DNA of 64,000 nucleotides from NCBI GenBank assembly GCA_963681965.1, contig OY820579.1, positions 2,256,835 through 2,320,834 of the forward strand. Direction: 5' to 3'. Both the position numbers and the translations under genes were made by a program. This DNA is from a bacterium. GTDB taxonomy: Bacteria; Electryoneota; JAOADG01. Each line of letters begins with the position of its first letter. The stretch's first letter is position 1. Positions 4,516-62,327 of this stretch are shown piece after piece. The notes beneath the pieces were generated by a model. It saw only the letters and a program-made list of their open reading frames with translations. It was not told the DNA's origin and ran no database searches.

Positions 4516-4823
4516 CCGGACCCATCGGACTGGAACACTATCTGGTATTGTCTGCGGTGTTGTTCTTTATCGGCGTTGCCGGTGTGCTGACACGACGCAA
4601 TGCCATCATCATTTTTATGTCGGTCGAATTGATGCTCAATAGCGTCAATCTGACGCTGGTTGCGTTTTCATCGTATCTGAAAAGCCCGACCGGACAGGTC
4701 TTTGCCTTTTTCGTGATTGCAGTTGCCGCCGCGGAAGTCGCCATCGGACTCGCAATCATTATTACCGTCTATCGCAATCGCAAGTCGATTCATATCGACG
4801 ATGTGAATCTGTTGAAAGAATAA
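4512..4823 (+). CDS. nuoK: NADH-quinone oxidoreductase subunit K
   Basis: 103-aa three-TM NuoK-like protein; translationally coupled to nuoJ. Confidence 0.9.
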
Positions 4824-5059
4824 TTTTTGGTGTTTTCCGTAGGGGCGTATGGCATACGCCCTGAGCGGCAGGCAACGCCTGACGCAGGTCTTTAAAAAAT
4901 TGAAGATGCGGGCGGTTCGCGAACCGCCCCTACCATGAAAAATGATTTGGGCGTATGCCATACGCCCCTACGGAAAGATAGATTGCCACAGCCCCTACGG
5001 GGCTTCGCAATGACAAATAATTCATCAACAACTCGAAACCAGGAATCGTCTGTAACGTA
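4824..5059. repeat. REP-like hairpin cluster (nuoK-nuoL intercistronic)
   Basis: ccgtaggggcgtatggcatacgccc twice in opposite orientations, gcgggcggttcgcgaaccgcccctacc, cccctacggggcttcgcaatg. Confidence 0.8.
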
Positions 5060-7048: not shown

Positions 7049-7062
7049 GGGTGTACTAAAGC

Positions 7063-8565: not shown

Positions 8566-8588
8566 TGCAACATTAGCGAAACAGATCG

Positions 8589-10040: not shown

Positions 10041-10528
10041 TTCATCTTTCCCAACACCCATCTTTTCGGTGGCGCAGGCCTCCGAGCCTGCGATTCGCTT
10101 CTTTTAAGTATGTCGGAATTTATTCCGACTCTTTTTTTTCTTTTGGCGGTTCGCGAACCGCCCGTTTTTCTTTCTTTTCCCACCTCCCAATACCTACCAC
10201 CCACCACCCATCATTTCCGTAGGTCAGAACTTGTTCTGACCATCTCCGGTATCTTTTTCTGGTATCTAGACCTGTCATTGCATAGCCGACGTAGGCTGCT
10301 TTGGTAGCGGCGGACTTTAGTCCGCGTATTGATTTTTACAAGATTCTACAAGAATTGCGGACTAAAGTCCGCCACTACCAAAAGATGGGTGTTAGGGAAT
10401 AGGTGGTGGTAATCGGGAAAAGGTTAAAATAAGGGAGGGCGTATGCACCCACCCGTTCTTTTTATTTTTTATCCATAAATACACTTGATTTGTTTTGATC
10501 TTACCGGTAAATTACAACTGTTGTATAT
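10041..10528. repeat. REP/MITE-like cluster downstream of nuoN
   Basis: gtcggaatttattccgac, ggcggttcgcgaaccgccc, gtaggtcagaacttgttctgacc, and two inverted copies of ggtagcggcggactttagtccgc around a ~35-bp AT-rich core (MITE-like). Confidence 0.8.
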
Positions 10529-10558
10529 GTGATGTTATTCGACAATGATGAGGTGATT

Positions 10559-12295
10559 ATGAAAACCAGCTTTCGAACTTTCCTGCTTCTGTTTATTACC
10601 CTTTCCTTATTCACACTTGTGAATGCACTACCCCTTTCCGGGGTGAAAACCGTTGGTGGTACCAATCCTGACTTTCCCTCATTAACTGCTGCAATCGACT
10701 CGCTCAATGCGCTCGGCGTTGCCAACGGGGGTGTGACATTCATACTGCGTGGCGGAACCTATCGCGAGCATTCCCGTGTGATTGTTACACCGACGAATAT
10801 CAATCGTCCGATTCACTTCACAGTCGAAGATGGTGCTGAAGTCGCAATTGAAATCGATTCGCTGCCAGGCGATACAATCGGATTTCAACTGCAAAGTCGT
10901 CATGTCACGATCGATGGCAGTTGGACGAACGATACGCTCGGACAACACCTCGCGATCGTAGGAACCAACTTACGCATCGGTGTGTGGTTCGCTAACGGTT
11001 CCGACTCGTCGATTGTGAAGAATTGTCGCATCACGCTACCGCGATCCATTACTCACGATCAGACAGAGGGAATCTGGGTCGGAGCATATGACTATTCAAT
11101 AATTGATGGCATCCGAATTCGACAATGTGCTATCGAAGGGGGGCAGGATGGAATTCGAGTGATTGCGCATTCGTCATTCGCAATGAATGGTATTGAAATT
11201 TCGAATTGCGAAATTAGCAATTTTTATTGGAACGGAATTTGGTTATACGCTTACAGTTGCGCAAAGATCTTCAATAACCGAATCTACCAAACAGTGGTGA
11301 CTACCGAAGTTGGAATCGGCATCTATGGCGGCGACTCTTGTCAGATCGTTGCCAATAAAATTGGTCCATTGCTAAGCTCAGTACGCGTGATTGGAATTAT
11401 CGACGGGTCGCACAATACAATTACCAATAATTTCATCAGGCTTGGTGATATGTCGAATTGCGCTGTGTACGGGATTCTAAGTCAGGTTGGTGCCGGGAAT
11501 AAATACCTGTTTAATACGGTTGTAACGTTCGGAACTTCGCGGATCGATTCGATTTCTACCGGGAATAGTACTTGTTTTTGGTCGACGGGATTTAATGTTG
11601 ATTCGCTTTGGGGAAATATTTTCGTCAATACCCGCACGGGACCCGGTCAACACCACGATTGTCTCTATATCGATACGGGACATGATCCGCGTTTCAGTAA
11701 CTATAATCTCTTCTACACCGCTTACGATACGGTGCTCCGAAACTGCTTTCTCGAGCGGCACGATACGGCACACTTTACCGGTTTCATTCATTCTGCGCGC
11801 TGGTTTCCGCGCGATTCCAATTCGATCTTCGGTCTTCCGGATTTTTCCTCCAATAACGATTTACATCTTCGGCACGACACAACCTCAATCGTTCACCATC
11901 GTGCACCACGCCACTGGCTTGTACCGACCGATATCGACGGAGAACCACGTTCTGCGCCTTACTGCGATATTGGTGCCGATGAATGGGATTCGGTGATGAC
12001 TGCTATTTGGCAGAATACTACGACGTTGCCATTGCAGTTTTCTCTGCATCCGAATTATCCCAATCCGTTCAATTCATCGACCACGATCTCGTATGAATTG
12101 CCGCATGCAGCGAATGTCGAGATTAAATTGTTCGATCTGACGGGTCGCGAAGTATCAACGCTCGTGCAGCAATGGCAGGGAGCGGGGAGGTATCGCTTGC
12201 CATTCGCGGGTCGCAATTTATCGTCGGGAACCTATTTTGTCCGGATGCAAGCTGGTGAATTTGAGAAGACGCAGAAGATCGTGTTATTACGCTAA
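10559..12295 (+). CDS. Secreted right-handed beta-helix protein with T9SS C-terminal sorting domain
   Basis: Signal peptide MKTSFRTFLLLFITLSLFTLVNA; parallel beta-helix-like repeats; C-terminal LFDLTGREV...GTYFVRMQ...QKIVLLR. Confidence 0.7.
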   Translation: MKTSFRTFLLLFITLSLFTLVNALPLSGVKTVGGTNPDFPSLTAAIDSLNALGVANGGVTFILRGGTYREHSRVIVTPTNINRPIHFTVEDGAEVAIEIDSLPGDTIGFQLQSRHVTIDGSWTNDTLGQHLAIVGTNLRIGVWFANGSDSSIVKNCRITLPRSITHDQTEGIWVGAYDYSIIDGIRIRQCAIEGGQDGIRVIAHSSFAMNGIEISNCEISNFYWNGIWLYAYSCAKIFNNRIYQTVVTTEVGIGIYGGDSCQIVANKIGPLLSSVRVIGIIDGSHNTITNNFIRLGDMSNCAVYGILSQVGAGNKYLFNTVVTFGTSRIDSISTGNSTCFWSTGFNVDSLWGNIFVNTRTGPGQHHDCLYIDTGHDPRFSNYNLFYTAYDTVLRNCFLERHDTAHFTGFIHSARWFPRDSNSIFGLPDFSSNNDLHLRHDTTSIVHHRAPRHWLVPTDIDGEPRSAPYCDIGADEWDSVMTAIWQNTTTLPLQFSLHPNYPNPFNSSTTISYELPHAANVEIKLFDLTGREVSTLVQQWQGAGRYRLPFAGRNLSSGTYFVRMQAGEFEKTQKIVLLR

Positions 12296-24745: not shown

Positions 24746-25700
24746 TGTAGGTCAGAACTTGTTCTGACCACCTCTTGTGTCCAAAATTGATGCGGGCGGG
24801 CGCGGGGACCCGCCCTTACTGGAAAATTTGTACGATCGTATTGCTGTAGGTCAGAACTTGTTCTGACCACCTCTTGTGTCCAAAAATGATGCGGGCGGGC
24901 GCGGGGACCCGCCCCTATTGGAAAATTTGTACGATCTTATTGCTGTAGGTCAGAACTTGTTCTGACCACCTCTTGTGTCCAAAAATGATGCGGGCGGGCG
25001 CGGGCGCCCGCCCCTACTGGAAAATTTGTACGATCGTATTGCTGTAGGTCAGAACTTGTTCTGACCACCTCTTGTGTCCAAAATTGATGCGGGCGGGCGC
25101 GGGGACCCGTCCCTACTGGAAAATTTGTTCGATCTTATTGCTGTAGGTCAGAACTTGTTCTGACCACCTCTTGTGTCCAAAAATGATGCGGGCGGGCGCG
25201 GGGACCCGCCCCTACTGGAAAATTTGTACGATCATATTGCGGTAGGTCAGAACTTGTTCTGACCACCTCTTGTGTCCAAAAATGATGCGGGCGGGCGCGG
25301 GGACCCGCCCCTATTGGAAAATTTGTACGATCGTATTGCTGTAGGTCAGAACTTGTTCTGACCACCTCTTGTGTCCAAAAATGATGCGGGCGAGCGCGGG
25401 GACCCGCCCCTACTGGAAAATTTGTACGATCATATTGCGGTAGGTCAGAACTTGTTCTGACCACCTTTTGTGTCCAAAAATGATGCGGGCGGGCGCGGGG
25501 ACCCGCCCCTATTGGAAAATTTGTACGATCGTATTGCTGTAGGTCAGAACTTGTTCTGACCACCTCTTGTGTCCAAAAATGATGCGGGCGGGCGCGGGGA
25601 CCCGCCCCTATTGGAAAATTTGTACGATCGTATTGCTGTAGGTCAGAACTTGTTCTGACCACCTCTTGTGTCCAAAATTGATCGGGCGGGGCGGGGACAG
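24746..25700. repeat. Tandem array, ~10 copies of a 99-bp two-hairpin unit
   Basis: Unit gtaggtcagaacttgttctgacc...gatgcgggcgggcgcggggacccgcccctactggaaaatttgtacgatcgtattgct starts at 24746, 24846, 24945, 25044, 25143, 25242, 25341, 25440, 25539, 25638; only point differences between copies. Confidence 0.9.
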
Positions 25701-25828
25701 AGGATACAAGAAAGAAAAACACAGGCTGAAGCCTGCGGCTACGTTAGTCAAATACGCGGACATTAGTTCGCCGCTACGAAAAAACGGCACATCGGATGAT
25801 GTGCCGCTGAAAAATTCATCGGGAAGAA

Positions 25829-26356
25829 CTAGTTGCCGGACTTGTGTCCATCATGTTTTTCTTCTTTCAATTCCTTTTGCTCTTCCTTCATTTCCCGTTT
25901 CATTTCTTTCTTTTCGTCGCGCATTTCTTTGCGCTCACCCATACTGTCACGCATTTCTTTATGCATTTTGTCGAACTGCTCTTTCTGTTCCGGAGTCAGA
26001 ATCGCGCCGATCTCGCTATTCAATTTTTTCAACAGCTCGCGCTCATGCTGAATAAGCGCTTTCTGAGTGATCGTCGTATCCATCCGAAGCTGCATCGTTT
26101 TGGCGTGATGTGCTGCTACGATGTCGCGAATCGATGTTTGCTGTTTTTCGGTCAATTTCAATTGGTCGGTCAAGCGCTCGATAAATTTATCGCCTCGTTT
26201 GCCATCCATCATTGGATGACCGCGCATTTTTTCCGGTTTATCGGATTTTACCGCCTTCTCCGAAGCAGTCGGTTGATCGGTTTCGGCATACGCGCAAGTA
26301 CCCAATACAAAAACTGCAAGTAACATCAGTATGGTGATTGTTCTAGTTAATCTCAT
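25829..26356 (-). CDS. Periplasmic LTXXQ-motif protein (Spy/CpxP/ZraP-like)
   Basis: Signal peptide MRLTRTITILMLLAVFVLGTCAYA; LTEKQ and LTPEQ motifs; charged helical C-terminus. Confidence 0.6.
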   Translation of the reverse strand: MRLTRTITILMLLAVFVLGTCAYAETDQPTASEKAVKSDKPEKMRGHPMMDGKRGDKFIERLTDQLKLTEKQQTSIRDIVAAHHAKTMQLRMDTTITQKALIQHERELLKKLNSEIGAILTPEQKEQFDKMHKEMRDSMGERKEMRDEKKEMKREMKEEQKELKEEKHDGHKSGN

Positions 26357-26404
26357 TGTTCCTCCGAGATTGTGAAATCCTGTCCGCCAAGTAATACGAG
26401 AGTA

Positions 26405-27112
26405 TCAATCGGTCTGAGGGATTGCGTCGGTCTGACCAATCCGCCAGGAAAATGGGTTGTAATCGCGATGAGTATCGACCACATCGCACTGATCGATCCG
26501 TTTCAATGTATTACACGCGAGATAGGTCACTGGAGTTGCAAATACTTCCACACCTACTTTAAAGATGTAATTGGAGAGGATGATGGTCCACAATAGCTCG
26601 CTGCTGATCGTACCGGCGAACGCTATCATGCAGAATAGACCCGTGTCGAGTGCCTCGCCGACCACTGTCGATCCGATTGTCCGCATCCAGAGATGTTTTT
26701 TGGGTTGAAACCGTTTCATGATCGACATGATCGTGTCATTCGACCACGAGCCGAATAAATATGCCGCCACCGATGCCATTACAATGCGGGTGGTCGAGAG
26801 TAATATGCTCTCGTATGCGGCTTGATTGGTCCACTCCGATGCCGAGGGTAACATTCCGACGACGGCGAATAGCGACACTGCCATTAATTGCGCGGCGAGA
26901 CCGATCCAGATCGTGCGACGAGCAATACGGAAGCCGTATACTTCCGTCAGGATGTCGCCAAAGATATAGGAGATCGGAAACAGCAATGTGCCGCCATCGA
27001 ATGTGAAATGACCGAGATTCACCAATTTGGTCGATGCCACATTCGAAATTAGGAGTACTGCTACGAAAAATCCGGTGATTGCCGGTAGCGATTTGTAATT
27101 ACGGTATTCCAT
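26405..27112 (-). CDS. yhhQ: Queuosine-precursor transporter YhhQ family (DUF165)
   Basis: Multi-TM protein with FPISYIFGDILTEVYGF signature. Confidence 0.8.
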   Translation of the reverse strand: MEYRNYKSLPAITGFFVAVLLISNVASTKLVNLGHFTFDGGTLLFPISYIFGDILTEVYGFRIARRTIWIGLAAQLMAVSLFAVVGMLPSASEWTNQAAYESILLSTTRIVMASVAAYLFGSWSNDTIMSIMKRFQPKKHLWMRTIGSTVVGEALDTGLFCMIAFAGTISSELLWTIILSNYIFKVGVEVFATPVTYLACNTLKRIDQCDVVDTHRDYNPFSWRIGQTDAIPQTD

Positions 27113-27677
27113 TGTTCCATTCGATTGATGATTTAAGCGTCATAATATAACGCAAATTCACAGCAAAAGGTAGTCGATCCAGTTAAATATAAGTTTATGA
27201 TTATTAGTAAGAAATATCGAGTTAAGAATTGTCAGTTGGTTATCCATCGCGAAGCGGTGGACTAAAAGAGTCCGCGTATTATTTATCCCGAAAATCTACT
27301 TACACACTTTTTACGTAGCCGCAGGCTTCAGCCTGCGTATTTTTATTTCTTGAATCTTGTATCTTGACATACGTGCGGATCCCCTCGCCTGCCCGTCTAA
27401 TTCTGTTTGGTAGGGGCGTTCTTACGCGTCCGCCCGTGTCAGGTGCATTAGCCACGATAGGGGCTTTTGGCAACCCCGAAGCGCTCACCGAAGGTATTAC
27501 GTCATCATCTTTTTAATTCAATATTTCAATATTCGCATTCTGCCAATTCGACTGTTACGGGCGGACGCGTAAGAACGCCCCTACCAAAAAAAAAGAAGAT
27601 TCGGAGATACCCTCTAATAAAAAAACGGGCGGTTCGAAAACCACCCGTTAATTCTTCTAAGTATCTAGTACCACCCG
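27113..27677. repeat. REP-like hairpin cluster
   Basis: gcggtggactaaaagagtccgcg, cgtagccgcaggcttcagcctgcg, gtaggggcgttcttacgcgtccgcccg with its inverted partner gggcggacgcgtaagaacgcccctacc, cgggcggttcgaaaaccacccg. Confidence 0.75.
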
Positions 27678-30600
27678 TTACTTCATGAACACCACTTTAC
27701 GCGTGGTCTTGAAGTTGTCGGCGGTAATCATCACGTAATACACGCCGCTGGCGTTGCCGCTGGCATTCCAATGCAGAGTATAGGTTCCGGCATCGAGGTT
27801 CCCTTGCGATAATACTGCTACTTCGCGACCGGTTTGATCGAACACCTTCGCCGAAACAAAACCGCTCTTCGGAACACTCAGTTTCATCGTCATCGAGGGA
27901 TTGAACGGATTCGGATACGCTTCCGAAACCACGTAATCCTTCGGTAACATCTGGGTCGCCGGTTGATCGACACCAGTGAATCCATCGGGAGTTTGCGTAC
28001 TGAATCGGATGATGTGGTTGTTGTGCAACTCTTCCGCACCCGGAGATGCGACGTGTGCAAACAACAGATCCAAACCGTCGGTGTGTTCCCAATTCATGAT
28101 GCCCATCGTTGTGTAGTTGTTGGTCTGATCGACATCGGATGAAGTGTGATACTGGAAATCGATAATGTTGTCGCTCGATGGTCCACGACGATCGCCGTAA
28201 AGAATGATTTCGAATTTCTGTCGGATCGGATTCGTTTCAATACCGTACCGCGAATATGCTTCCGCCCATTCGATGATATATTTCCGATCGCCGGGGGTGT
28301 TGTCCATTCGATAGAACAATCGGACTCGACCGCTATCAGCCGGATTCGAACCCTTCAAGTCGTCCCAGTTCGCCGCAAGCAACGTGCGCGGTCCCTGAGA
28401 ATTCGGCAGCGTCCAGTTGTAGAAATCATACATCCAGGTGCTGTCGAAGCTGACCCAACCATTCGAACAAATCGACAAGAATTGATTGTAAGTCCGACCG
28501 TAGAATGTGAATGGGAACGGTATCGCTTGCACATACGTGGTATCGTCTTTCAGAATGAGCGAAGTCCCGTTACCGCCCAGTGCCGTATCCAATTCGATCC
28601 AGTTATAAGTCGGTGTCGGCCACGTTCCGGTCGACGGTACGTCGATCTCTTCGTAGGCGTAGTAGCCGTAATTGTCCGGTCCGGTCGGCATCGTGCTGGC
28701 ACGGGTTCCGCAAGTGATATTGAACCACGTGGTCAATGTATCCGAACCACCGATGATCCAATTCAACATCCGAATGGGAATGATGTGTCCGGGTAGAATG
28801 GATTGGGCGATTTCCGCATCGAATGCTACAAAACCGCTATCGCGAATCGCCATATAATACGCCGCCGGTGTCGTGATATTCATGCCATTCGAGAAGGTGA
28901 CAAACTGGTAGTTGCATGCCGGAATGGCAGCGTTACCCTCACTCTTGAGATGCACTTGAATTGTCGTCGAGCGGCTGACACCCGGTGTTAACGACCCACT
29001 CTCGACGACGATCCCGGAGATCCGCGGTAATGCCCAAGCGACTGGCATGGCGAAATCGACGGCACCCGAAGCGAACGTCAAGCGAAGCGATTCCGGTGTG
29101 CGATCTGCCAGGGATACGACTTTCACGCGATAAGTCAGGGATGTGGTAGCACCGGCATTCACCGTACCGGCATTGGAACTATTGTTGAGAATGACCAACC
29201 GGTTGCGCGTATTCGTTTGCGATAAAATCGCCTGCGAAGCGGCTGCGGTCGTTCCCACATTCTTGATTAAGATGTTGATATCGCCTTCGACACCCGGGCT
29301 GGGCAGTGTATTGGGAATATTGAAGAACACTGAATCGACCCGGAACTGACCAATCAAAGGATTATTAGTTTGAATGTAGTTGATAACTGGACGGTAGTTA
29401 CCGCCGCGAACCGCGATTCTAACGGTATCGTTTGCGACGATCCGCAATGGTAACGTGGCATATCCTTGAGCATCAGTAAGCGAGACTGCTGGATTAGCAC
29501 CAGCATTTCCGACGATCAGCGCTGCAACCATATTCGGCAAAGGATTACCTGTTCGCTGATCGACTGCGCGAATCGTCATCGAAGACGAAGCTGGATTCAA
29601 TGTCGTCGGGAATGTCACTTGCATCGTGTCAGGTGTTTTGTACCATAACGTCAATGACGGATCGCCAAGGATGTTGTAGAACCGGAAATATTGTTCGACT
29701 GCCGTCATCTCATTCGGGAAACCTTGATACACTTCCAATTTTCCGCGCAATGTTGCCGGACCCAGTTTATTGAGACCGTCATTCAGCCAGCCGTGCAGCA
29801 ATCCAGCCAGAATTGGGTTGTTATAGCGTGTGCTGGTATGCAAGTGGGCTGCACCGAAGAAAGCCGGACCGCATTTCGGTACACTTGGCGAACCGGTTTC
29901 AACCCATGCTTCGCCGAAGCATTGGTTGCCGTCGACTTGCGAATTTAATGCGGCATACCGACCATTCTGACAGACGATCGATAGCATTACTGCATCGTTT
30001 CTGGTGACATTAGCCAAGTCACCTCGCTGTAATCGAGGGTAGAGTGGACCTTGGCTATCGCCCCAGCCGCGATAAGTGATTAGCGAAACACCTTGATTGA
30101 TTAACGCAAGAATCGAATCAGTACCTGGTGCCGGTTGCATCGGATAAAGATAGGTACTGACATTGTAACCAAAGTCACGCAACATCTGTGCTGCCCAACG
30201 GGTATTTTCCGTGGGAGTGATCGGTGGGCTACCCGTGTCGGAATAGTTGCCGGCGAAGCAGAATGCTTTATTCATGTAATTCGTATTCGCTGGGTTTCCA
30301 GTTCCGGGGGAATTTTGATGTTGTTGTGTTTTGTTCACGATCGTAGCAAGTCCTGTAGTAGAACCATAGGAGATTCTACCCAGAAATGCTTCCGGCCAGA
30401 AGTCAGAACCATCCAGCAATACATAATTCAAGTCGGAAGGAACCGTTTCCGCTGCCGAAACGGTAAACGGAAACGTCGGGACATTGTCCAATCGGTCGGC
30501 ATCGCCGATAATCGCGACATATTCGACTGGAAGCGTATGTGCCAACGAATTGTAGACATCGGCTATCAACAATTTGATCTGGTCGCCATTGGCTCCGGAC

Positions 30601-31391
30601 GGAATCAAGATCGTAGCGACATTATATCCTTCCATTTTCTTCAAATTGGTAAACGTGAGAAGTTGCGAATTATAAGACGCTGAGGAAGGACGCACGATCA
30701 CGTAAGTACCCGGTCGCCACAACAGGGATCGTCCCATCGAGAATGGGTTATAACCCAAAAACATCGTTTCATAGATCCCGTGATAGGATGGTGTGATCGG
30801 ACCGGTTAATGTCGGTCCTGCTACAGTCGCAGTCAACGTGATCGTTAGTTCGCTGATCGCTTCGATGGTGCCGTCGGATAGTTGGCGCAACGGATACACG
30901 GTCACCGGAACGACGCCGAAATCCTTGAAGACACCCGGTTCGCCGACAGTCACGCGCGGCATCTCGCTGGATTTCGCCAACGGGGTGTTGGGGAATTCCG
31001 GATCGCTGGCGATCGCAACTGCGCCGCCGAGTCGGTCCGTCGTGATATGTTCCGTACGTCCGGCAACGACACTGGCAGTCGCTTTCACCGCAAAATTGAA
31101 GGGGACGAATACGGTCACGCCGGAAATATCGGGGGTACCTAATTTCGGAAACGCTTCGTGTTGTCCACCAACGCGAAGAGCAACGCCGTTGGTCGCTTTC
31201 TCAACCGCGAAGCCATTCAACTTCACTGTGAAAGTGACCGTGGTTGCGCTGCGATTGAGTTGATCGACGTTGGGGGATGGGGTGCCGACTGCCGCGGATG
31301 ACGCTGCATCGGACAGCCAGACGGTTTGCACGGGAGCAGCAAATGCGCCGAGTGCAACGATTAACAGGATCGAAAGAAGTAACCTTCTCAT
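27678..31391 (-). CDS. Peptidase C25 (gingipain-like) family secreted protein with T9SS C-terminal sorting domain
   Basis: Signal peptide; C25-like core around YVAIIGDADRL and the later region with conserved His and Cys; C-terminal KVFDQTGREV...GVYYVMITADNFKTTRKVVFMK. Confidence 0.6.
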   Translation of the reverse strand: MRRLLLSILLIVALGAFAAPVQTVWLSDAASSAAVGTPSPNVDQLNRSATTVTFTVKLNGFAVEKATNGVALRVGGQHEAFPKLGTPDISGVTVFVPFNFAVKATASVVAGRTEHITTDRLGGAVAIASDPEFPNTPLAKSSEMPRVTVGEPGVFKDFGVVPVTVYPLRQLSDGTIEAISELTITLTATVAGPTLTGPITPSYHGIYETMFLGYNPFSMGRSLLWRPGTYVIVRPSSASYNSQLLTFTNLKKMEGYNVATILIPSGANGDQIKLLIADVYNSLAHTLPVEYVAIIGDADRLDNVPTFPFTVSAAETVPSDLNYVLLDGSDFWPEAFLGRISYGSTTGLATIVNKTQQHQNSPGTGNPANTNYMNKAFCFAGNYSDTGSPPITPTENTRWAAQMLRDFGYNVSTYLYPMQPAPGTDSILALINQGVSLITYRGWGDSQGPLYPRLQRGDLANVTRNDAVMLSIVCQNGRYAALNSQVDGNQCFGEAWVETGSPSVPKCGPAFFGAAHLHTSTRYNNPILAGLLHGWLNDGLNKLGPATLRGKLEVYQGFPNEMTAVEQYFRFYNILGDPSLTLWYKTPDTMQVTFPTTLNPASSSMTIRAVDQRTGNPLPNMVAALIVGNAGANPAVSLTDAQGYATLPLRIVANDTVRIAVRGGNYRPVINYIQTNNPLIGQFRVDSVFFNIPNTLPSPGVEGDINILIKNVGTTAAASQAILSQTNTRNRLVILNNSSNAGTVNAGATTSLTYRVKVVSLADRTPESLRLTFASGAVDFAMPVAWALPRISGIVVESGSLTPGVSRSTTIQVHLKSEGNAAIPACNYQFVTFSNGMNITTPAAYYMAIRDSGFVAFDAEIAQSILPGHIIPIRMLNWIIGGSDTLTTWFNITCGTRASTMPTGPDNYGYYAYEEIDVPSTGTWPTPTYNWIELDTALGGNGTSLILKDDTTYVQAIPFPFTFYGRTYNQFLSICSNGWVSFDSTWMYDFYNWTLPNSQGPRTLLAANWDDLKGSNPADSGRVRLFYRMDNTPGDRKYIIEWAEAYSRYGIETNPIRQKFEIILYGDRRGPSSDNIIDFQYHTSSDVDQTNNYTTMGIMNWEHTDGLDLLFAHVASPGAEELHNNHIIRFSTQTPDGFTGVDQPATQMLPKDYVVSEAYPNPFNPSMTMKLSVPKSGFVSAKVFDQTGREVAVLSQGNLDAGTYTLHWNASGNASGVYYVMITADNFKTTRKVVFMK

Positions 31392-32217
31392 CGGTGTTTC
31401 CTCCTCTTGGTGAACAGTCCCGGTATGAAACGAAAACTTCCGACAAAAAAACGCAAGCCGAAAATCAATCCGCTCAGTCGATCCGGGGGCAGCGGTTGCA
31501 CCTGTTTATGATCTCGCCACTGTAGCCGCGAAAGTTTCGAGAGAATCTCAATACTACAGTTACAATATGCATTCAAAGCCGGATAAAAGCAATATGCAAC
31601 AACGATTGCGAATGAAAATCAATCTTGATAACACATTTGCACACAACTTCCCAGAAGTGATTACTATTTATACAGATATTAGCTACTTACCGGAGGTAAA
31701 GGATGCTCTCTGCAGATGATCGGTTGATTTGTCGTTGCGAGGACTGCAGCGAAGGAACATGCGAAGCATTTCCGAAGCGGAAGGACGAAGCAATCTATCT
31801 TGAATCCTGTTTTCTCTAGTAGGGGTGGGTCCCCGCGCCCGCCCGTTCTTGTATCTTTATTTCTCTTTTCCCAATCCCCAATGCCTATTTCTCCATCACC
31901 CATTCTATGCGTCAGGCGCTGCCTGCCGCTTGGGGCGAATGCGATTCGCCCCTACGGAAAAAACGCGGACTAAAGTCCGCCGCTACCATGATGAATTGTC
32001 AGGCTGAAGCCTAACTTCCGATTTCAAGAGACAGATACACCGAACCTGCGATTCGCTTCCTTTCCGTAGGTCAGAACTTGTTCTGACCATTTCTTGTATT
32101 TTTTTTCTCTTTTCCCACCACCTACAACCCACTACCCACCACCCGTTTGGTTGATTTGTCGTTGCGAGGACTGCAGCGAAGGAACATGCGAAGCATTACC
32201 TCAGTTTCTTCCCGACG
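31392..32217. repeat. REP-like hairpin cluster
   Basis: Two copies of the ~70-nt cgttgcgagg element, gtaggggtgggtccccgcgcccgcccg, ccgtaggggcgaatcgcattcgcccc (reverse), gcggactaaagtccgccgctacc, gtaggtcagaacttgttctgacc. Confidence 0.75.
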
Positions 32218-33017
32218 GTGCATCTCTCCTACAAATTGAGCAAACTAAATGAATTGCAATTGAGTTACAGTCGGCGCGTGCGGCGACCGGATGGTGAGGA
32301 TTTGAATCCATTCCCGGAATATCGCGATCCGTTGAATGTCTGGGCGGGAAATCCGAAACTGTTGCCGGAATATGTGAATGTGCTGGAACTCGGTTGTCAA
32401 TATCTGAATGGCGGATTGATGTTGGTACCGGCGCTGTTCTACCGCAACACGAATAATCGCTTTACCCGGGTCACGCAGACACTGCACGATTCGATCGTCT
32501 TGACGACCATGGAAAATCTGGCTTCCGATCAATCCGGCGGTATCGAATTGAATGTGTCGTGGAATCATCAGAAATCGTTTTCGCTTCACGGATACAGTAG
32601 TGTGTTTTTCGATCAGATCGATGCCACCAATCTTAACAATACAATGGAAAGAAGAATGTTACGACGTGGACCAGCAATATCACGATGGATGTCAATTTGA
32701 CCGAGACCAGCCGGTTTCAACTCAACTCGAATTACAATTCGGCACGATTGACGGCGCAAGGGAAAAACAAACCGTCGTATTCGCTCAATTCCGGTTTTCG
32801 ACAAGAATTGTTTGAAGGAAAATTGACGATCACTGCGACCGTCACGGATATCTTCAAGACGATGAAACGGGAATTCGAGTTGAATATCCCGACGCTGCAG
32901 CAAACATCGGTGAATAAGCGCGACTCGCGCGTAATGTACGTCGGATTGAATTATCGCTTCGGTTCGCAGAAGAAGAAAGCGAAAGAAGACCAGATTAAAT
33001 ACGATGACGGGTTGTAG
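32218..33017 (+). pseudogene. Remnant of an outer-membrane beta-barrel protein gene (C-terminal ~265 codons, frameshifted)
   Basis: No signal peptide or N-terminal domain; reading frame switches near 32650-32700 between track ORFs 32218-32700 and 32685-33017; ends with beta-barrel-like ...YVGLNYRFG; 5' side abuts the repeat cluster. Confidence 0.45.
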
Positions 33018-33040
33018 AATAGATCGCCGTAAAATGTATA

Positions 33041-33068
33041 CGGGCGCTTTGCAGCGCCCGTTTTTTTT
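33041..33068 (+). terminator. Rho-independent terminator
   Basis: cgggcgctttgcagcgcccg hairpin followed by an 8-T run. Confidence 0.6.
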
Positions 33069-33134
33069 GTGTTTCTTACACTCGTTCGAATTTCGTGGTG
33101 AAGTGCCGCAGGATCGGTGGTTCGTAGGTGGTCC
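33068..33134. repeat. Left direct repeat: diverged duplicate of the tnaA 3' end (putative att remnant)
   Basis: gtgtttcttacactcgttcgaatttcgtggtgaagtgccgcaggatcggtggttcgtaggtggtcc is ~92% identical to 36341-36405; on the minus strand it still encodes ...TYEPPILRHFTTKFERV-stop. Confidence 0.7.
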
Positions 33135-33201
33135 TTAAAAGCTAGTTCAACATTCGAACTTAGAATATCAATTAATTGATTGCTAGATAATCTGAATTGG
33201 A

Positions 33202-34011
33202 TTAAATGTAAGGATCGTCCAATTTGCAGTAACTAGCATCAAGAATATTGGCTTTACAACAATAATTCATTAACCAAGTTACATGTTCTTCATCGATGGG
33301 TGGGATATCCTTCTTGAACAAAACGGCTCGATCCAATCTTCCGATCCACTCTCGCGCTTTAGTTACTAATTGAACCTCGATGATACGCGATTCTTGGATC
33401 ATAATTAAAAAATGGATAGCACGATAATTAGTGTCGTGGGAGTACAATTTCGGATTGAAATAATAATTTCTGCATCGATAAATTTTTCGATAAAAGTCAC
33501 GCCATATTTTTACTCCTAATTGCGCAAGTTCGTTAGGAGTCTGGACGACTATTCGAAATCGAACCAAGTCCCAAATATCGTATAAATATTCAGGATAATA
33601 CCCTAACCGTTTTCGTTTCTCAATCGATTTTGCGATTGATTCATCTGATTTCAAGTTACCAAATAAATGTTCGAGCGGAACTTGCGATTTCTCGATATAA
33701 TCAAGTAACACGAGTCGGGAAAAGTCAAAGACTTTCTGTTTCTCATTTTTATCCATCACAAAATCAGACCAGTCAGCGATATTTTGACTAATTCGAAAGC
33801 CTGTTTCCGGGATAACTATTAACTTTCTAGATAATAGATCTACTGACTGATCGTGAAGCAATTGAAAATTGGGATCTGCTGAGTTTGTTCCATTCTCAAT
33901 TTTATTGCCTAACTCTAAAAATTCGGTTCGATCTTTGTCAGAAAGTGAGCACCAGAATTGTTTGAACCATTTGTCATGGCACTCGCAGTATTCGATATGT
34001 CTTTGTAACAT
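33202..34011 (-). CDS. RelA/SpoT-like (RSH/small alarmone synthetase-like) nucleotidyltransferase-fold protein
   Basis: Ordered motifs with RelQ-like spacing: SIAKSIEKRKR, DIWDLVRFRIVV, NYRAIHFLIMI, IEVQLVTKAREW...LFK. By-eye match, not HMM-verified. Confidence 0.5.
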   Translation of the reverse strand: MLQRHIEYCECHDKWFKQFWCSLSDKDRTEFLELGNKIENGTNSADPNFQLLHDQSVDLLSRKLIVIPETGFRISQNIADWSDFVMDKNEKQKVFDFSRLVLLDYIEKSQVPLEHLFGNLKSDESIAKSIEKRKRLGYYPEYLYDIWDLVRFRIVVQTPNELAQLGVKIWRDFYRKIYRCRNYYFNPKLYSHDTNYRAIHFLIMIQESRIIEVQLVTKAREWIGRLDRAVLFKKDIPPIDEEHVTWLMNYCCKANILDASYCKLDDPYI

Positions 34012-34031
34012 TGAGCACTCAAAATTATTAA

Positions 34032-34652
34032 TTACGAGAAATAGATATCATTCTTTGCAAATGTTGATCGAACAGAGTCCTTTCTCTCAACAACAGCAAT
34101 TTTTTTTCCTTTCTTATGAAGTAATAGAAATTCTTTGTTTACTAAATCTTTAATGCGATAATACATTTCACTCGGATTTTGAACTTTGTCAACTTGCCAT
34201 CTCTGAAAATTCGTAAATAAATCTTCAAGAGTGATCTGATCTAATGAATACTCGTATATAAATTCAATTATCTTTTTCTGAGTAAAAGATAATTTTCTAT
34301 AAGAATCCACTAATTTCAGTTCTTGATCTGCAACACTAGGAGCACTCTCGATGGGTATTTTAGATACTGATGTAACAGAATAAAGCGAATATTCGTTAGG
34401 TTTTTGTTTTAAATTAGATTTATGTGAAAGATATGTGAACAAAATCACGAAAAATAATCCAATTAATAATTCAAACACACCTATAAATACTATTAACCCA
34501 TTTGGGTGAGCACGATAAATTATATTATTTGTTTGATTATGCCATTCGAAAATTCCTAATAAAATCATAACTGTTCCACCAAGAACAAATATTGCATCGA
34601 TTCTTGCCTTAAAAAGACTTTTTAAAAGTTCGAACATAATGATCCCTTTCAA
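34032..34652 (-). CDS. Membrane protein: two N-terminal TM helices plus ~110-aa C-terminal winged-helix-like domain (paralog 1)
   Basis: Shares with the next gene the pattern ELLK..KA..D.I.VL.G..M.LLGIFEW..Q.NNII.R.HP and a C-terminal block ...YYRIKDL...G..IAV.E. Confidence 0.55.
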   Translation of the reverse strand: MKGIIMFELLKSLFKARIDAIFVLGGTVMILLGIFEWHNQTNNIIYRAHPNGLIVFIGVFELLIGLFFVILFTYLSHKSNLKQKPNEYSLYSVTSVSKIPIESAPSVADQELKLVDSYRKLSFTQKKIIEFIYEYSLDQITLEDLFTNFQRWQVDKVQNPSEMYYRIKDLVNKEFLLLHKKGKKIAVVERKDSVRSTFAKNDIYFS

Positions 34653-34703
34653 AATAATAAATTAGAGATTAATCGCTTTAAATTGAAATGAATTACCGGT
34701 TAA

Positions 34704-35249
34704 TTAAGAGCACAATATATTCTTTTTTTCCAAAGTTAACTGAACAAAACCAATTTTCTCAATGACAGCTATATTTCTTCCAATATTATGAAGATTAATG
34801 AAACCATTATATTTTAGATCTTTAATTCTATAATAAAATTCGTTTTTGTTTTGAATAATTCCAGGTCTCCAGGCTTGAAAACCATCGAAAAGCACTTCGA
34901 GAGAAATTTCATTTAATAAATGTTGGTAAATAAATTGTACAATCAGCATTTGTGTTAATGTTAAATTGTGATAAGATAAGACTAACTGTTCTTCATAGTC
35001 TCGTTTAGGACTTGCCATCTCCGAATGAACTCTCTGTTGAATATAGAAATTAATAATATAGAGTGAAATACCAATTAATGTTAACAGAATCCCAATAAAA
35101 ATGACAAAACTATGAGGATGTGTTCGAATAATAATGTTATTTAATTGACCATTCCATTCAAAAATACCAAGCAGCAACATCGAAGAACCAACAAGCACTA
35201 AGATGACATCAACTTTTGCTTTAAGAACGCCTTTAAGTAGTTCTAGCAT
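34704..35249 (-). CDS. Membrane protein: two N-terminal TM helices plus C-terminal winged-helix-like domain (paralog 2)
   Basis: Paralog of 34032-34652; start overlaps the stop of the upstream NTase gene (35243-35249). Confidence 0.55.
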   Translation of the reverse strand: MLELLKGVLKAKVDVILVLVGSSMLLLGIFEWNGQLNNIIIRTHPHSFVIFIGILLTLIGISLYIINFYIQQRVHSEMASPKRDYEEQLVLSYHNLTLTQMLIVQFIYQHLLNEISLEVLFDGFQAWRPGIIQNKNEFYYRIKDLKYNGFINLHNIGRNIAVIEKIGFVQLTLEKKNILCS

Positions 35250-36130
35250 GATAAAGCTCGTCTTGGAAGAGAAATATGATTTTTTTCGATAAGTACAATT
35301 TGAGTACTAAATTTTATCTTTACTCTTATAGCGCAATCGGCTGAAAAGCAATTTGGGTGGTTGCCCTTAGTCGACTCAAATAAAAGAATATTTTCTTTCA
35401 TATGAATTGGAAGCGATGATTGTAATGGCATTTGATAATAATTTTGGACGTACTCCTTCATACAACAAAAATAAAAATAGTATGCTGTGGCTTGTTGAAT
35501 CGGTAGAGTGCTGACTTGCAGTGAATCAATAATTTTGTGTTCTTTTAACCACCAATCACATAAAACAAGAAACTCGTAATCAACCAATCCCCCAGCACCG
35601 CTTTTAAAATCCCAATAATGTGGCGATTTTGGGTCGTCGTATTCATCGCTGCGATGTGGGTTTCCGAGGAAGAATCTGTGCAAATTATCGAATGAAGTAT
35701 TTTTCAACCAATACTTGAATTTACTAATAAATTCTTGGTAGATCGACTGGTTTCCTGCAAGAAATCGAAGGTGAGGAAAAGAGACAAGTAATGGAAAAGA
35801 GTAGGTGTCGATTGCTTTATCGAGAGAATTAATGATGAAATGCGTTGGATGATTTGGTGTGTATCGTTTAAGTAGCGATTTTATCAAATCGCGATCAATG
35901 TTTGGTGATCGATAAAGAACGAAGAAATCAATATCGGAAAACTGATTTGGATGACCGCGAGCGTAGCTTCCCCTTAAACAGATAGCAAAAGTTTGATTAT
36001 TCAAAAATGAAGAAATATGCTCTTCGGAAAGATAGGCGTGAAGTTGTTCAACTCGTTTTAAGAATTTCTCTTGATATGTCAGCGATAATTTTAAGAATGT
36101 TGTCGGGTTGTTTGTGATAAACATAAACAA
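35243..36130 (-). CDS. Nucleotidyltransferase with Pol-beta-type motif and GlnD/GlnE-like second motif
   Basis: GSYARGHPNQFSDIDFFVL (GS-x10-DxD) and ~120 aa later DFKSGAGGLVDYEF, resembling the GlnD/GlnE uridylyl/adenylyl-transferase signature. Confidence 0.55.
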   Translation of the reverse strand: MFMFITNNPTTFLKLSLTYQEKFLKRVEQLHAYLSEEHISSFLNNQTFAICLRGSYARGHPNQFSDIDFFVLYRSPNIDRDLIKSLLKRYTPNHPTHFIINSLDKAIDTYSFPLLVSFPHLRFLAGNQSIYQEFISKFKYWLKNTSFDNLHRFFLGNPHRSDEYDDPKSPHYWDFKSGAGGLVDYEFLVLCDWWLKEHKIIDSLQVSTLPIQQATAYYFYFCCMKEYVQNYYQMPLQSSLPIHMKENILLFESTKGNHPNCFSADCAIRVKIKFSTQIVLIEKNHISLPRRALSC

Positions 36131-36300
36131 TACCTATGCAAACTTCATTCGATCACAGTAGTAAAAAAATCCATAAATAGTTTCTTCATGAGGCAATTAG
36201 TATTCTTGTAAAGATAATAATAAACTAAACAAATTCAAAATGGTATTTGGTAAAATATAAACAATCAACTTACATGTTGACGAGATATCTAAAAAATAAT

Positions 36301-36320
36301 TCCGGTAAAACTATACCGGA
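36301..36320 (-). terminator. Candidate terminator for tnaA lying inside the island
   Basis: Hairpin ccggtaaaactataccgg immediately 3' of the tnaA stop, followed on the minus strand by a T-rich run. Confidence 0.4.
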
Positions 36321-36338
36321 ATTATCAATTAAGTTAAA

Positions 36339-36405
36339 TTGTGTTTCTTACACCCGTTCGAATTTTGTGGTGAAGTGCCGCAGGATCGGCGGTTCGTAAG
36401 TGATC
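36339..36405. repeat. Right direct repeat: functional 3' end of tnaA
   Basis: gtgtttcttacacccgttcgaattttgtggtgaagtgccgcaggatcggcggttcgtaagtgatcc; encodes ...ITYEPPILRHFTTKFERV-stop in frame with tnaA. Confidence 0.7.
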
Positions 36406-37715
36406 CGCAGACCTTTGATTTTGTGAGCGCGATCTTTCAACTTCTTCATCCCGTCGGCAACAAATTCGAGATGCGAATTCGTGTATGCGCGTCGCGGAAC
36501 GCAAAGCCTTAGCAATTCCAATTTCGGATAGCGGTTTTCGCGGGTTACCGGATCGCGATCCGCCAGTACCGTGCCAATTTCCACACCACGGACACCCGCC
36601 TCGATATAGGCTTCCACGCCCAGCACCTGCGCCGGGAACGCTTCGCGCGGAATATTCGGCAACAATTTCAAGGCATCGACGTAGATCGCATGTCCACCTG
36701 CCGGCTGTACGATCGGAATGCCGCGTTCCAACAAGAGATCGCCGAAATATTTCACCTGAGCCAACCGGAATTCGAGGTAATCTTCTTCAACACCTTCGCG
36801 TAGACCGACCGCCAATGCTTCCAAGTCGCGTCCCGATTGACCGCCGTACGTCACGAACCCTTCAAACAGAATTCCGAAAATCGAGCACTGACGATACAGC
36901 TCTTCGTCGCGACAGGCAATAAAGCCACCGATATTCACCAGCGCGTCCTTCTTCGAGGACATCGTGCAACCATCTGCCATGGAAAATAGTTCGAGGGCAA
37001 TTTCTTTGACCGATTTCTGTGAATATCCATTTTCGCGCTGTTGAATGAATTTGCAATTTTCGGCATAGCGCGCGGCATCGATGAATAATTTCACGTCATA
37101 CTTGTCGCACAAGGCTTTCACGGCACGGGCATTTTCCATCGAGACTGGTTGTCCGCCGGTGCTGTTACAGGTAACCGTGAGTAATACGAAGGGAATTAAT
37201 TTCTTCGGAGCATATTCCTGCAAAACCGATTCCAGTTTTTTCAGGCAGACATTCCCTTTGAACGGATGGATCAGCTCCGGATCGAAAGCGTTGTCGTCGG
37301 TGCAGTCGATCGCGTGCGCTTTGCGATATTCGATGTGTCCTTTGGTCGTATCGAAATGCGAATTGCCGGGAATGACTTCTCCTTCGTGAACCAATACACT
37401 ATGCAGTACGTTTTCGGCAGCACGCCCTTGGTGGGTGGGGAGGACGAAGGGAAAACCCATGATATCCTGAACCGCTTTTTGGAAATTGTAGAATGAGCGC
37501 GCACCGGCATACGATTCGTCGCCCATCATCAACGCTGCCCACTGCGCATTCGACATCGCGCCGGTACCACTGTCCGAGAGCATATCGATGAAGACATCTT
37601 CCGAATGCAAGCCAAATAGATTGTAGCCGGTTTCCTTGATTTTTTGTTCCCGCTCGTCGCGCGGCAGGAGCCGGATCGGCTCAATCATCTTGATTCGGTA
37701 GGGTTCTGGAAACAT
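36348..37715 (-). CDS. tnaA: Tryptophanase / beta-eliminating lyase family (PLP-dependent)
   Basis: PLP-lysine motif SSKKDALVNIGGF; overall TnaA/TPL-like sequence; start set to MFPEPYRIKMIEP. Confidence 0.85.
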   Translation of the reverse strand: MFPEPYRIKMIEPIRLLPRDEREQKIKETGYNLFGLHSEDVFIDMLSDSGTGAMSNAQWAALMMGDESYAGARSFYNFQKAVQDIMGFPFVLPTHQGRAAENVLHSVLVHEGEVIPGNSHFDTTKGHIEYRKAHAIDCTDDNAFDPELIHPFKGNVCLKKLESVLQEYAPKKLIPFVLLTVTCNSTGGQPVSMENARAVKALCDKYDVKLFIDAARYAENCKFIQQRENGYSQKSVKEIALELFSMADGCTMSSKKDALVNIGGFIACRDEELYRQCSIFGILFEGFVTYGGQSGRDLEALAVGLREGVEEDYLEFRLAQVKYFGDLLLERGIPIVQPAGGHAIYVDALKLLPNIPREAFPAQVLGVEAYIEAGVRGVEIGTVLADRDPVTRENRYPKLELLRLCVPRRAYTNSHLEFVADGMKKLKDRAHKIKGLRITYEPPILRHFTTKFERV

Positions 37716-39352: not shown

Positions 39353-39767
39353 AACGTCTCTCCCTTGGAAAAATCAACATCAATAATGATTTGTCGGTCG
39401 TCTTCCGACGAAGCCGCAGGCATAAGGCTTATTATTAAATTGATTTTGATTTCTCTGGTAGGGGCGGTTCGCGAACCGCCCGTGTCCTATGATAACTCAC
39501 GATTATTTTCGAATTTGGGAATCAAGATGGTCTAATTTACAATCGTTATCCTCAATATTGATCATCCCAACTTTCAACGTTACGGGCGGTTCGCGAACCG
39601 CCCCTACCTCAAAATTCCCATTCAAACGCGAACGTTTTTCGCCGTTACCAAAAACATAATTAATATACACCAAAACGGGCGAACAATATCGCTCGCCCGT
39701 AACACAAGTTATTCTCAATACCGGTTCATTGCCGATAAATTATGCACTGACAAGAATCCGGAAAAAA
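39353..39767. repeat. REP-like hairpin cluster
   Basis: ggtaggggcggttcgcgaaccgcccg and inverted cgggcggttcgcgaaccgcccctacc flanking an AT-rich core; gggcgaacaatatcgctcgcccg hairpin. Confidence 0.75.
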
Positions 39768-59071: not shown

Positions 59072-59830
59072 TTCATGATATGAAGTAGTAGGGGCGGTTC
59101 TCTGCGACCGCCCTTTTTTTATTTCGTAGGGGCGAACCACGAAGTGCTTGCCGAAGGCAAACGATAAAAAGATACAAGATCGGGGGCATGCGGGGATGCC
59201 CCCCTACTAAAAAAGAAAGAGTCGGAATAAATTCCGACTCACGGAAAAGATGGGTGATGGGGGATAGGTGTCGGGTGATGGGAAAAGATAAAAACAGATA
59301 CAAGAACGGGCGGTTCTCTGCGACCGCCATTTTTTTTATTTCGTAGGGGCGAACCACGAAGTGCTCGCCGAAGGCAACCGATAAAAAGATACAAGATCGG
59401 GGGCATGCGGGGATGCCCCCCTACTAAAAAAGAAAGAGTCGGAATAAATTCCGCCCCACGGAAAAGATGGGTGATGGGGGATAGGTGTCGGGTGATGGGA
59501 AAAGATAATAACAGATACAAGAACGGGCGGTTCTCTGCGACCGCCATTTTTTTTATTTCGTAGGGGCGAACCACGAAGTGCTCACCGAAGGCAAACGATA
59601 AAAAGATACAAGATCGGGGGCATGCGGGGATGCCCCCCTACTAAAAAAGAAAGAGTCGGAATAAATTCCGACCCACGGAAAAGATGGGTGATGGGGGATA
59701 GGTGTCGGGTGATGGGAAAAGATAAAAACAGATACAAGATCGGGCGGTTCGCGAACCGCCCCTACTAAAAAAATGAGTCGGAATAAATTCCGCCCCACGG
59801 AAAAGAAGATACTCGCCTCTGTGTGGTGCT
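59072..59830. repeat. BIME-like array: ~3 tandem copies of a ~216-bp unit
   Basis: gtaggggcggttctctgcgaccgcc at ~59088, 59308, 59524, each followed by gggggcatgcggggatgcccccctac, gtcggaataaattccgac and a gatgggtgatgggggataggtgtcgggtgatggg tract. Confidence 0.85.
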
Positions 59831-60037
59831 GTTATCGGTGACTTACTAATACTATCTATCTTACCGTCGTCAATATCGATGAAATAAAAACTTACCTGTA
59901 TTTTACCGGTTTATTCGAAATAATTGCCCCTAGTTAGGGTAATTGAACCTCCGACTTTTTTATAAAACGGATCATTTTGATTGCTGGTTATTCAATTCCG
60001 GTACATATTACCGCTAATCAGACTTGTCGGAGCTTCT

Positions 60038-62191: not shown

Positions 62192-62300
62192 GCGCGACCC
62201 TCCGCGGTCGCCCGCATCTTTTTTGGACACAAGAGGAGTCGGAATAAATTCCGACCTACGGAAAAGATGGGTGATGGGTTGTAGATGACGGGATTAGTAG
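62192..62300. repeat. REP-like hairpins
   Basis: ggcgcgaccctccgcggtcgccc, gtcggaataaattccgac, gatgggtgatgggttgtagatgacggg. Confidence 0.7.
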
Positions 62301-62327
62301 GATTGCAATGACGAAGGAGGATCGATT

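Follow-up and report, generated by a model that had tools for sequence, protein, structure and literature searches.

A window of 64,000 nt was analysed on contig OY820579.1 of a bacterium of the Electryoneota (JAOADG01; GenBank assembly GCA_963681965.1, positions 2,256,835 to 2,320,834 of the forward strand, numbered here from 1), and the 3' end of its tryptophanase-family gene tnaA was found to be followed by an AT-rich islet of 3,204 bp (33135..36338, a minus-strand operon of four genes) that lies between two copies of a 68-nt direct repeat, both of which encode the tnaA C-terminus. The best overall explanation, to which we assign a probability of roughly 0.6, is that a small DNA circle integrated at the tnaA 3' end and that its cargo, a triad composed of a Pol-beta-superfamily nucleotidyltransferase (NTase), a membrane effector and a RelA/SpoT pyrophosphokinase resembling small alarmone synthetases (Rel), is a system controlled by a nucleotide signal. 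The islet is an integrase-less element flanked by attachment (att) sites and similar to a cis-mobilizable element (CIME), a kind of element that is already known. An original prediction, made from the sequence alone, had recognised the repeat and the foreign block; beyond it, the cargo proved to be a conserved three-component system in which TIR domains and pairs of transmembrane (TM) helices are exchanged in the effector, and the insertion site proved to be a synteny breakpoint.

The tnaA 3' repeat and the foreign islet

The two repeat copies are identical at 63 of 68 positions and lie on the minus strand at 33067..33134 (copy A, attL-like) and 36339..36406 (copy B, attR-like), with a start-to-start spacing of 3272 nt. 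Copy B is the tnaA 3' end in current use and is made up of the final 59 coding nt of the gene, the TAA stop and a 9-nt trailer; copy A holds the last 19 codons, the stop and the 9-nt trailer and, because an in-frame TAG stands four codons 5' of the repeat, is a displaced relic outside any gene. In the tnaA frame the two share the tail ...TYEPPILRHFTTKFERV followed by the stop and the 9-nt trailer, copy B being translated as ITYEPPILRHFTTKFERV and copy A as TTYEPPILRHFTTKFERV, each up to the stop. All five differences are transitions, of which four are synonymous and the fifth is an I/T exchange at the inner edge, and the longest perfect match is 23 nt, with mismatches flanking it on both sides. 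Both copies are host-like in GC content (50-51%), and a 50-nt core pattern of the repeat occurs in the window at copies A and B only, as compared with 0 sites expected from shuffled sequences. Thus, the ~66-bp repeat with 5 mismatches that had been described, its coding of the tnaA C-terminus in both copies with four of five differences synonymous, and the displacement of one copy from the original 3' end were all recovered, the repeat being 1-2 nt wider than first noted; the doubt raised at the same time, that it might be a common dispersed repeat, does not apply within the window.

The tnaA gene itself is intact (36348..37715, minus strand, 455 aa). Its product scored 674 bits with NCBIfam PRK13238 (cut-off 285) and matched PF01212 at 1.8e-77, fell slightly below the cut-off of the TnaA equivalog model (716 versus 750), and aligned over its full length with relatives at up to 82% identity; in the list of open reading frames (ORFs) the gene starts 39 codons too early, M40 being the first residue both in the gene call and in the alignment to NCBIfam. 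The TTKFERV C-terminus encoded by both repeat copies was found in no other genome among the 120 best TnaA matches, and therefore the att copy of the element came from, or took shape in, this lineage; the cargo, by its composition, is foreign.

The GC content of the islet (33135-36338) is 32.2%, versus 50.3% for the remaining window; the DNA changes abruptly to AT-rich at both inner repeat boundaries, and no other deep low-GC block is present in the 64 kb. A terminator-like hairpin with a T-run (36295..36326, minus strand) lies 22 nt 3' of the tnaA stop, within the element, and would shield the cargo operon against read-through from tnaA. A second terminator-like hairpin, bidirectional, adjoins copy A (33040..33061) and is probably the original terminator of tnaA and of the convergent outer-membrane gene. 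Just within both islet ends, the 10-mer TATCAATTAA occurs in the same orientation (33166-33175 and 36322-36331), its left copy being embedded in the perfect palindrome ATCAATTAATTGAT; a recombinase may bind this motif, or it may occur by chance in AT-rich DNA.

Relatives of the TnaA protein with 82%, 75% and 70% identity were taken from the protein database and their contigs (L018, L022 and L024) were examined; no close TnaA relative was present in the GTDB representative genomes, in which the best match was ~54% identical. The gene order upstream of tnaA (trigger factor, HHH_3, hypothetical, Spore_YtfJ, coaD-like, LPG_synthase_TM, tnaA) is kept in the relatives, with the coaD-like gene found at 3/4 loci and not called in L022, and none of the four islet genes was found in L018-L021, L022 or L024. 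In L018, the sole relative in which the 3' end was read, the tnaA stop is followed after 14 nt by a bidirectional terminator, with no second tnaA tail, and this layout of stop, short spacer, A-run, hairpin and T-run is the arrangement of copy A and the 33040-33061 terminator in the window.

Scans of the four islet proteins with PADLOC, Pfam, NCBIfam and PHROGs detected no recombinase domain (PHROGs returned no match at all), and the larger ORFs of the window that were scanned against Pfam, or that have precomputed Pfam hits in L001, yielded neither an integrase nor a transposase. A degenerate att pattern had no match in viral contigs or in Joint Genome Institute (JGI) metagenome contigs, the NTase and Rel proteins had none in plasmids (tblastn), and the Rel profile had none in viral contigs. 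Lacking a recombinase, the islet either stays where it is or, as a CIME-like element would, needs an integrase from another locus in order to move. CIMEs are defined by the retention of attL and attR and the loss of the genes for integration and transfer (PMC5704250). The islet resembles them in its attL- and attR-like repeats, in a target gene kept intact by an element-borne copy and in the lack of integration and transfer genes, but it is very small (3.2 kb), bears no relics of a conjugation or recombination module and has no known partner element with a cognate integrase. When compared with integrative elements at gene 3' ends, it shows direct repeats that leave the gene intact and a site that is empty in relatives, and it has no recombinase of its own. 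To our knowledge, tnaA has not been described as an integration target.

The original prediction thus fared well at the level of the islet: an AT-rich insert that is the one clearly foreign block of the window, four co-oriented genes between the repeats, a hairpin that would terminate tnaA (36326-36295 as read on the minus strand), and the absence of an integrase or transposase from the insert were each found again. The two possibilities that it named, a decayed element or one mobilised in trans, are the right ones to weigh, given that neither the islet nor the larger window ORFs scanned hold a recombinase, and the footprint of site-specific integration that it proposed is supported by the extent of the repeat, the abrupt boundaries, the terminator of the element and the island-free relatives. 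The empty site that it suggested looking for was found in L018, where the tnaA stop is followed by the terminator, and L018, L022 and L024 all lack the islet.

A single reciprocal crossover, in which a circle with the 68-mer recombines with the tnaA end on the chromosome, gives this topology. In the route that we infer from the repeat, the foreign composition and the absence of the islet from relatives, a small circle of foreign DNA that bore the tnaA 3' end as a 68-bp copy would have recombined with the chromosomal counterpart of this copy, and this circle was most likely the remnant of a larger, integrase-bearing integrative element whose integrase was later lost. Depending on the position of the crossover, the element would have supplied all or part of the last 19 codons of tnaA, the stop and the 9-nt trailer, along with a new terminator, while the original tail would have been displaced by 3.27 kb and left beside the old terminator. 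A repeat that ends 9 nt past the stop and reaches 59 nt into the gene, accompanied by an element-borne terminator, looks like an adapted attP, and mismatches on either side of a 23-nt core would be as expected of attL and attR formed from slightly different attB and attP sites. We favour site-specific integration of a once-larger element followed by loss of the integrase, with mobilisation in trans as the alternative.

Entry without any integrase is an unlikely route by comparison: circular or looped DNA from a closely related strain, with a tnaA 3' fragment beside the cassette, would have been joined to the chromosome by one RecA-dependent crossover of the Campbell type. The host-like GC content of both copies, the lineage-specific C-terminus that they encode and an islet without a recombinase or recognisable recombinase remains all suit such a crossover, and a longest perfect stretch of 23 nt with mismatches on both sides is permitted by either model; however, 68 bp at 93% identity are a poor substrate for RecA, the sharp end of the repeat 9 nt past the stop and the element's own terminator resemble an adapted attP more than they do a fragment picked up at random, and in L025 (see below) the triad is carried on an integrase-bearing element. 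Much less probable again is a repeat made in place, by a long target duplication or by duplication during replication or repair at insertion, in which the five differences arose later. This would give the same lineage-specific peptide in both copies, and the synonymous pattern has a P of ~0.2 under it with selection on one copy, but a divergence of 7% implies an old event, yet the islet lies 18 GC points below the host and its four genes are intact; furthermore, we know of no transposition mechanism that produces 68-bp target duplications. An assembly artefact, by which a metagenome-assembled contig of 4.34 Mb would have been joined chimerically at a short repeat, is very improbable because a Logan assembly (ERR12015701) spans both junctions and matches over 7,330 bp with 100% identity (the two assemblies may share reads) and because copies that differ at five positions cannot have been mis-joined or collapsed as identical repeats.

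The cargo genes and their counterparts in other loci

The four islet genes, all on the minus strand, are closely spaced, with an overlap of 7 nt between the stop of the NTase gene and the start of the gene after it. The NTase (35243..36124, 293 aa) carries the motifs GS...SDxD and K.G.GG..D.EF, scored above the cut-off for Pfam NTP_transf_2 and gave weak matches to GlnD, MntA and ANT(4'); in a comparison of its profile with the PDB, the nearest entries were ANT(4'), minimal nucleotidyltransferase (MNT) antitoxins, DrrA and GlnE, alike in the nucleotidyltransferase core only, and HalB was matched at E 0.056. It is followed by two effector paralogues that are 41% identical, the effector gene being duplicated in the islet: paralogue 1 (34704..35249, 181 aa) has two TM helices and a C-terminal domain (CTD) of ~95 aa, and in paralogue 2 (34032..34637, 201 aa) a linker joins two TM helices at the N-terminus to the ~95-aa CTD, the TM helices of both being predicted. 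A homologue search with paralogue 1 returned only the query and missed the 41%-identical neighbour; this search was insensitive, and homologues of the effector were obtained by way of gene neighbourhoods. The last gene encodes Rel (33202..34011, 269 aa), which scored above the cut-off for Pfam RelA_SpoT and has an additional N-terminal helical region of ~65-110 aa; its small alarmone synthetase (SAS) fold and intact catalytic motifs of the RelA/SpoT homologue (RSH) synthetases were confirmed. No triad protein reached a curated cut-off in PADLOC 2.0.0, NCBIfam 20.0 (June 2026) or PHROGs.

The CTD gave weak Pfam matches to several winged-helix families, and, judged by these, it may be a winged helix, which is a better guess than a death-effector domain (DED). 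The DED assignment was considered and rejected as unsupported: the top PDB profile matches were the DEDs of cFLIP at E 0.2-1, and the RxDL motif was out of register.

Hidden Markov models (HMMs) built in this analysis were used to scan seven contigs of Rel homologues and 22 more metagenome loci, and the family counts given here rest on short metagenome contigs. Rel had 14 full-length homologues at 26-35% identity. Every locus with sufficient flank and a close Rel homologue also held an NTase homologue and an effector bearing the same CTD (the window, L025, L027, L029, L031, L033, L034, L035, L038, L045, L046 and L047), and two cut contigs (L041 and L042) held the effector and Rel. In eight loci, L029 and L031 among them, a TIR domain forms the N-terminal half of the effector, and in five or six this half is formed by two TM helices (2TM), the CTD remaining constant; in L033 and L035 the NTase is convergent and lies downstream. 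The catalytic motifs of both enzymes are invariant in the family: the NTase keeps G52, S53, S63, D64 and D66, with K174, G176 and G178 near-invariant, and Rel keeps the RSH synthetase motifs (G118, K121, D145, D148, R151, R153, CRNYY, Y196, R197, H200, E212 and Q214), while conservation in the CTD takes the form L..TQ, E...R...L, G and V, with T119, Q120 and R161 invariant. The NTase family is rare: a search of 1.84 billion proteins gave 48 representative clusters at E<1e-3, with a best identity of 32%.

The neighbourhoods of the triad support a mobile, defence-island-like cargo. L025 has, at 2339-10474, an element with an integrase (Arm-DNA-bind_5/Phage_integrase), an HTH_17 excisionase-like gene and a Phage_CRI replication gene; the neighbours are a relaxase, a type IV coupling protein (T4CP) and ParDE in L033, a TraI_2 relaxase and SLFN_AlbA_2 in L034, and IstB in L035. 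In L038 the triad alone forms a compact islet (5500-8103) with a GC content of 28-30% versus ~40%, which abuts a tRNA-Leu gene and in which no integrase or flanking repeat was detected. The triad of L025 is of the 2TM type and stands directly 3' of a 530-aa caspase-like protein (Peptidase_C14) with a weak NCBIfam match to 'caspase, EACC1-associated type'.

More distant Rel homologues (L043 and L048-L058) had no triad partners by these HMMs and were excluded from the family count. By eye, distant Rel-like genes lie beside sigma-54-type AAA+ activators in L050 (4387-7936), L052 (1565-4579) and L056 (2961-7777), and L050 and L052 also have a protein of ~270 aa whose C-terminus resembles nucleoside 2-deoxyribosyltransferase. 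This sigma-54-activator neighbourhood is a separate conserved context.

Candidate function of the triad

Because TIR and 2TM modules swap on one CTD and two nucleotide enzymes are always present, we regard the triad as a candidate abortive-infection (defence) system under the control of a nucleotide-derived signal, a role that we consider reasonably probable. By analogy with known systems, the exchange of TIR and 2TM modules on one conserved domain would be the pattern of abortive-infection effectors. In the scheme that we infer from the domain identities, the gene triad and the effector swapping, the NTase and Rel would make or modify a nucleotide-derived ligand in two steps, and this ligand would gate the effector via the CTD; the infected cell would then be killed or arrested, its membrane being disrupted by the 2TM effectors found here or its NAD+ being depleted by the TIR variants. 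Such control could be of the activating kind, as in the cyclic-oligonucleotide-based antiphage signalling system (CBASS) and Thoeris, or it could take the form of a constitutive repression that phage relieves, as in Hailong. The product of a Pol-beta NTase has a free 3'-OH, and one possible chemistry is that Rel 3'-pyrophosphorylates the NTase product; it is proposed because RSH enzymes pyrophosphorylate 3'-OH groups, those of nucleotides or of tRNA ends (PMC7229694; 10.1101/2021.04.30.441581). That the triad might constitute a new class of immune system, in which serial NTase and RSH chemistry yields a 3'-pyrophosphorylated nucleotide, oligonucleotide or protein-linked nucleotide that is read by the CTD, is a further step that we hold only tentatively and consider doubtful.

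The nearest mechanistic analogy is Hailong, in which an NTase is likewise paired with a membrane effector. As summarised in PMC13434031, the NTase HalB makes an oligo-dA product that binds the cytoplasmic part of the membrane ion channel HalA and gates it, under a constitutive repression that is relieved by phage. Hailong differs from the triad, however, in having two genes, no RSH enzyme and no TIR variants, and membership was rejected on the score of the HalB model NF051895 (12.8 bits versus a cut-off of 190) and the E of 0.056 for HalB structures. The full-length effector profile had no PDB match and the CTD profile matched only unrelated chains, in a set in which HalB was present and the presence of HalA was unconfirmed. 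With CBASS, Thoeris and Pycsar the triad shares an enzyme module and an effector that joins a swapped killing domain (TIR or TM) to a ligand-sensor domain; in contrast to these systems, its enzymes are not cGAS/DncV-like nucleotidyltransferases (CD-NTases), TIR cyclases or pyrimidine cyclases, its two nucleotide enzymes are always found together, and its sensor-like CTD is not SAVED, STING, SLOG or Macro. As to the synthases of these three systems, PADLOC gave weak domain-level matches only (PDC-S09, PDC-S66, PDC-S33, and ThsB at 0.0036). Type VII toxin-antitoxin modules (MntA-HepT) offer the parallel that an MNT-like Pol-beta NTase could neutralise a partner by nucleotidylylation, but the triad NTase has three times the length, one half of it helical and GlnD-like, and has no HEPN partner; NF047752 scored 18 bits versus a cut-off of 60, no HEPN domain was found with Pfam, and membership was rejected. 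A system combining RSH, TIR and NTase components was not found described in the literature searched, although an earlier description may exist.

The main rival for the cargo is an addiction or stress module, which we think unlikely overall: either a toxin of the toxic SAS (toxSAS) type with the NTase as its neutralising, modifying antitoxin, or an alarmone unit with membrane-anchored winged-helix regulators. Membrane-tethered winged-helix proteins can act as transcription factors, which speaks for the latter form. The SAS fold of Rel is near those of CapRel, FaRel and Tas1, the NTase is weakly like the MntA antitoxin, and a conserved layout as a small operon is one sign of toxSAS toxicity (PMC7229694). 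However, the swapping of TIR and 2TM modules on one CTD points to an interchangeable killing effector rather than to a regulator or antitoxin, and no known toxSAS antitoxin domain is present according to Pfam and NCBIfam. Rel is only 13-21% identical to toxSAS and other SAS enzymes (RelQ/SAS1, RelP/SAS2, CapRel, FaRel and Tas1), has the extra N-terminal helical region and, unlike CapRel, has no fused pseudo-zinc-finger-domain (pseudo-ZFD) sensor. Where a toxSAS module has an adjacent cognate antitoxin of a known class, the partners here are the NTase and TIR/2TM effectors, and not a small alarmone hydrolase (SAH), Panacea or other known antitoxin.

Several observations weigh against integration of a circle with a nucleotide-controlled cargo. 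No integrase, circular form or same-species empty site was found that would demonstrate site-specific recombination; the nearest island-free genome is only 82% identical in TnaA, and no convincing flanking direct repeats comparable to those of the islet were found around the triad in other loci. The synonymous bias between the repeat copies (P ~0.05 for five random transitions under neutrality and ~0.2 if one copy is under selection) is suggestive only and statistically not decisive, and the insertion site is also a rearrangement breakpoint, with a history that may be more complex. As for the cargo, no triad protein scores above the cut-off for any validated defence family, as far as profile comparison can tell, and an AF2 model of the 2TM effector built from a two-sequence alignment reached a confidence (pLDDT) of 49, which is unusable for the fold of the CTD.

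Flanking rearrangements and wider meaning

The downstream flank of tnaA is a synteny breakpoint and a rearrangement hotspot in the lineage. In L018 the gene is followed by a 182-aa gene, Vut_1 and a C25 peptidase, in L022 by YCII, LplA and then the nuo operon, and in L024 by HATPase, SpoIIE and STAS genes. The Vut_1-C25 peptidase block of the window (25829-31391) is inverted relative to L018 (11441-16595), with one breakpoint at the tnaA 3' end, and the distance from nuo to tnaA is ~26 kb in the window versus ~1.4 kb in L022. The position of an LTXXQ-like gene beside the Vut_1-C25 block fits its having moved together with the block. On the left flank of the islet, a TonB-dependent receptor/OMP_b-brl_3 pseudogene (32218..33017, plus strand; PF14905, 1.9e-19) consists of two overlapping, frameshifted fragments of the C-terminal barrel (160 and 110 aa), its N-terminal part being gone.

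The ~0.8 kb of non-coding DNA between the C25 peptidase and this truncated outer-membrane gene (31392-32217) is occupied by dispersed repeats, of which those at 31725-31869 match 984-1135, 1373-1450, 2841-2896 and 3711-3788 and those at 31956-32144 match 50707-50889, 51028-51210, 54251-54439 and 54577-54675; related palindromic units are present at 39440-39625. These repeats resemble miniature inverted-repeat transposable elements (MITEs) or repetitive extragenic palindromic (REP) elements, and they are possible substrates of the local inversion. A tandem array at 24746-25698 (99-nt unit, 9.6 copies, 95% matches) contains a 195-aa ORF (25135..25722, minus strand), and its unit comprises the GC-rich palindrome GGGCGGGCGCGGGGACCCGCCCC and the motif GTAGGTCAGAACTTGTTCTGACC, the latter recurring at 32060-32090; a reading of this array as CRISPR (clustered regularly interspaced short palindromic repeats) was rejected, as entire units repeat. 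Many large secreted proteins of the window carry the Por_Secre_tail sorting domain of type IX secretion (10529-12295, 27678-31391, 51433-53643 and 57761-63734), an indication of a bacterium of the FCB group.

The insertion is of a kind already known, but it offers a clean and useful natural case of an integrase-less, att-flanked islet that repairs its target gene and insulates itself by a terminator. The cargo is a rare, conserved triad that none of the searched defence and annotation libraries names, in which known domains are newly combined with an unclassified sensor-like domain, and it can be tested directly, as its catalytic residues and effectors have been identified along with some 13 natural variants. 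Should the triad prove to be an immune system, the gating of effectors would be tied to the chemistry of alarmone synthetases, and a new ligand-sensor domain would join SAVED, STING, CARF and others; under the serial scheme, RSH chemistry would also reach beyond alarmones and tRNA ends into immune signalling.

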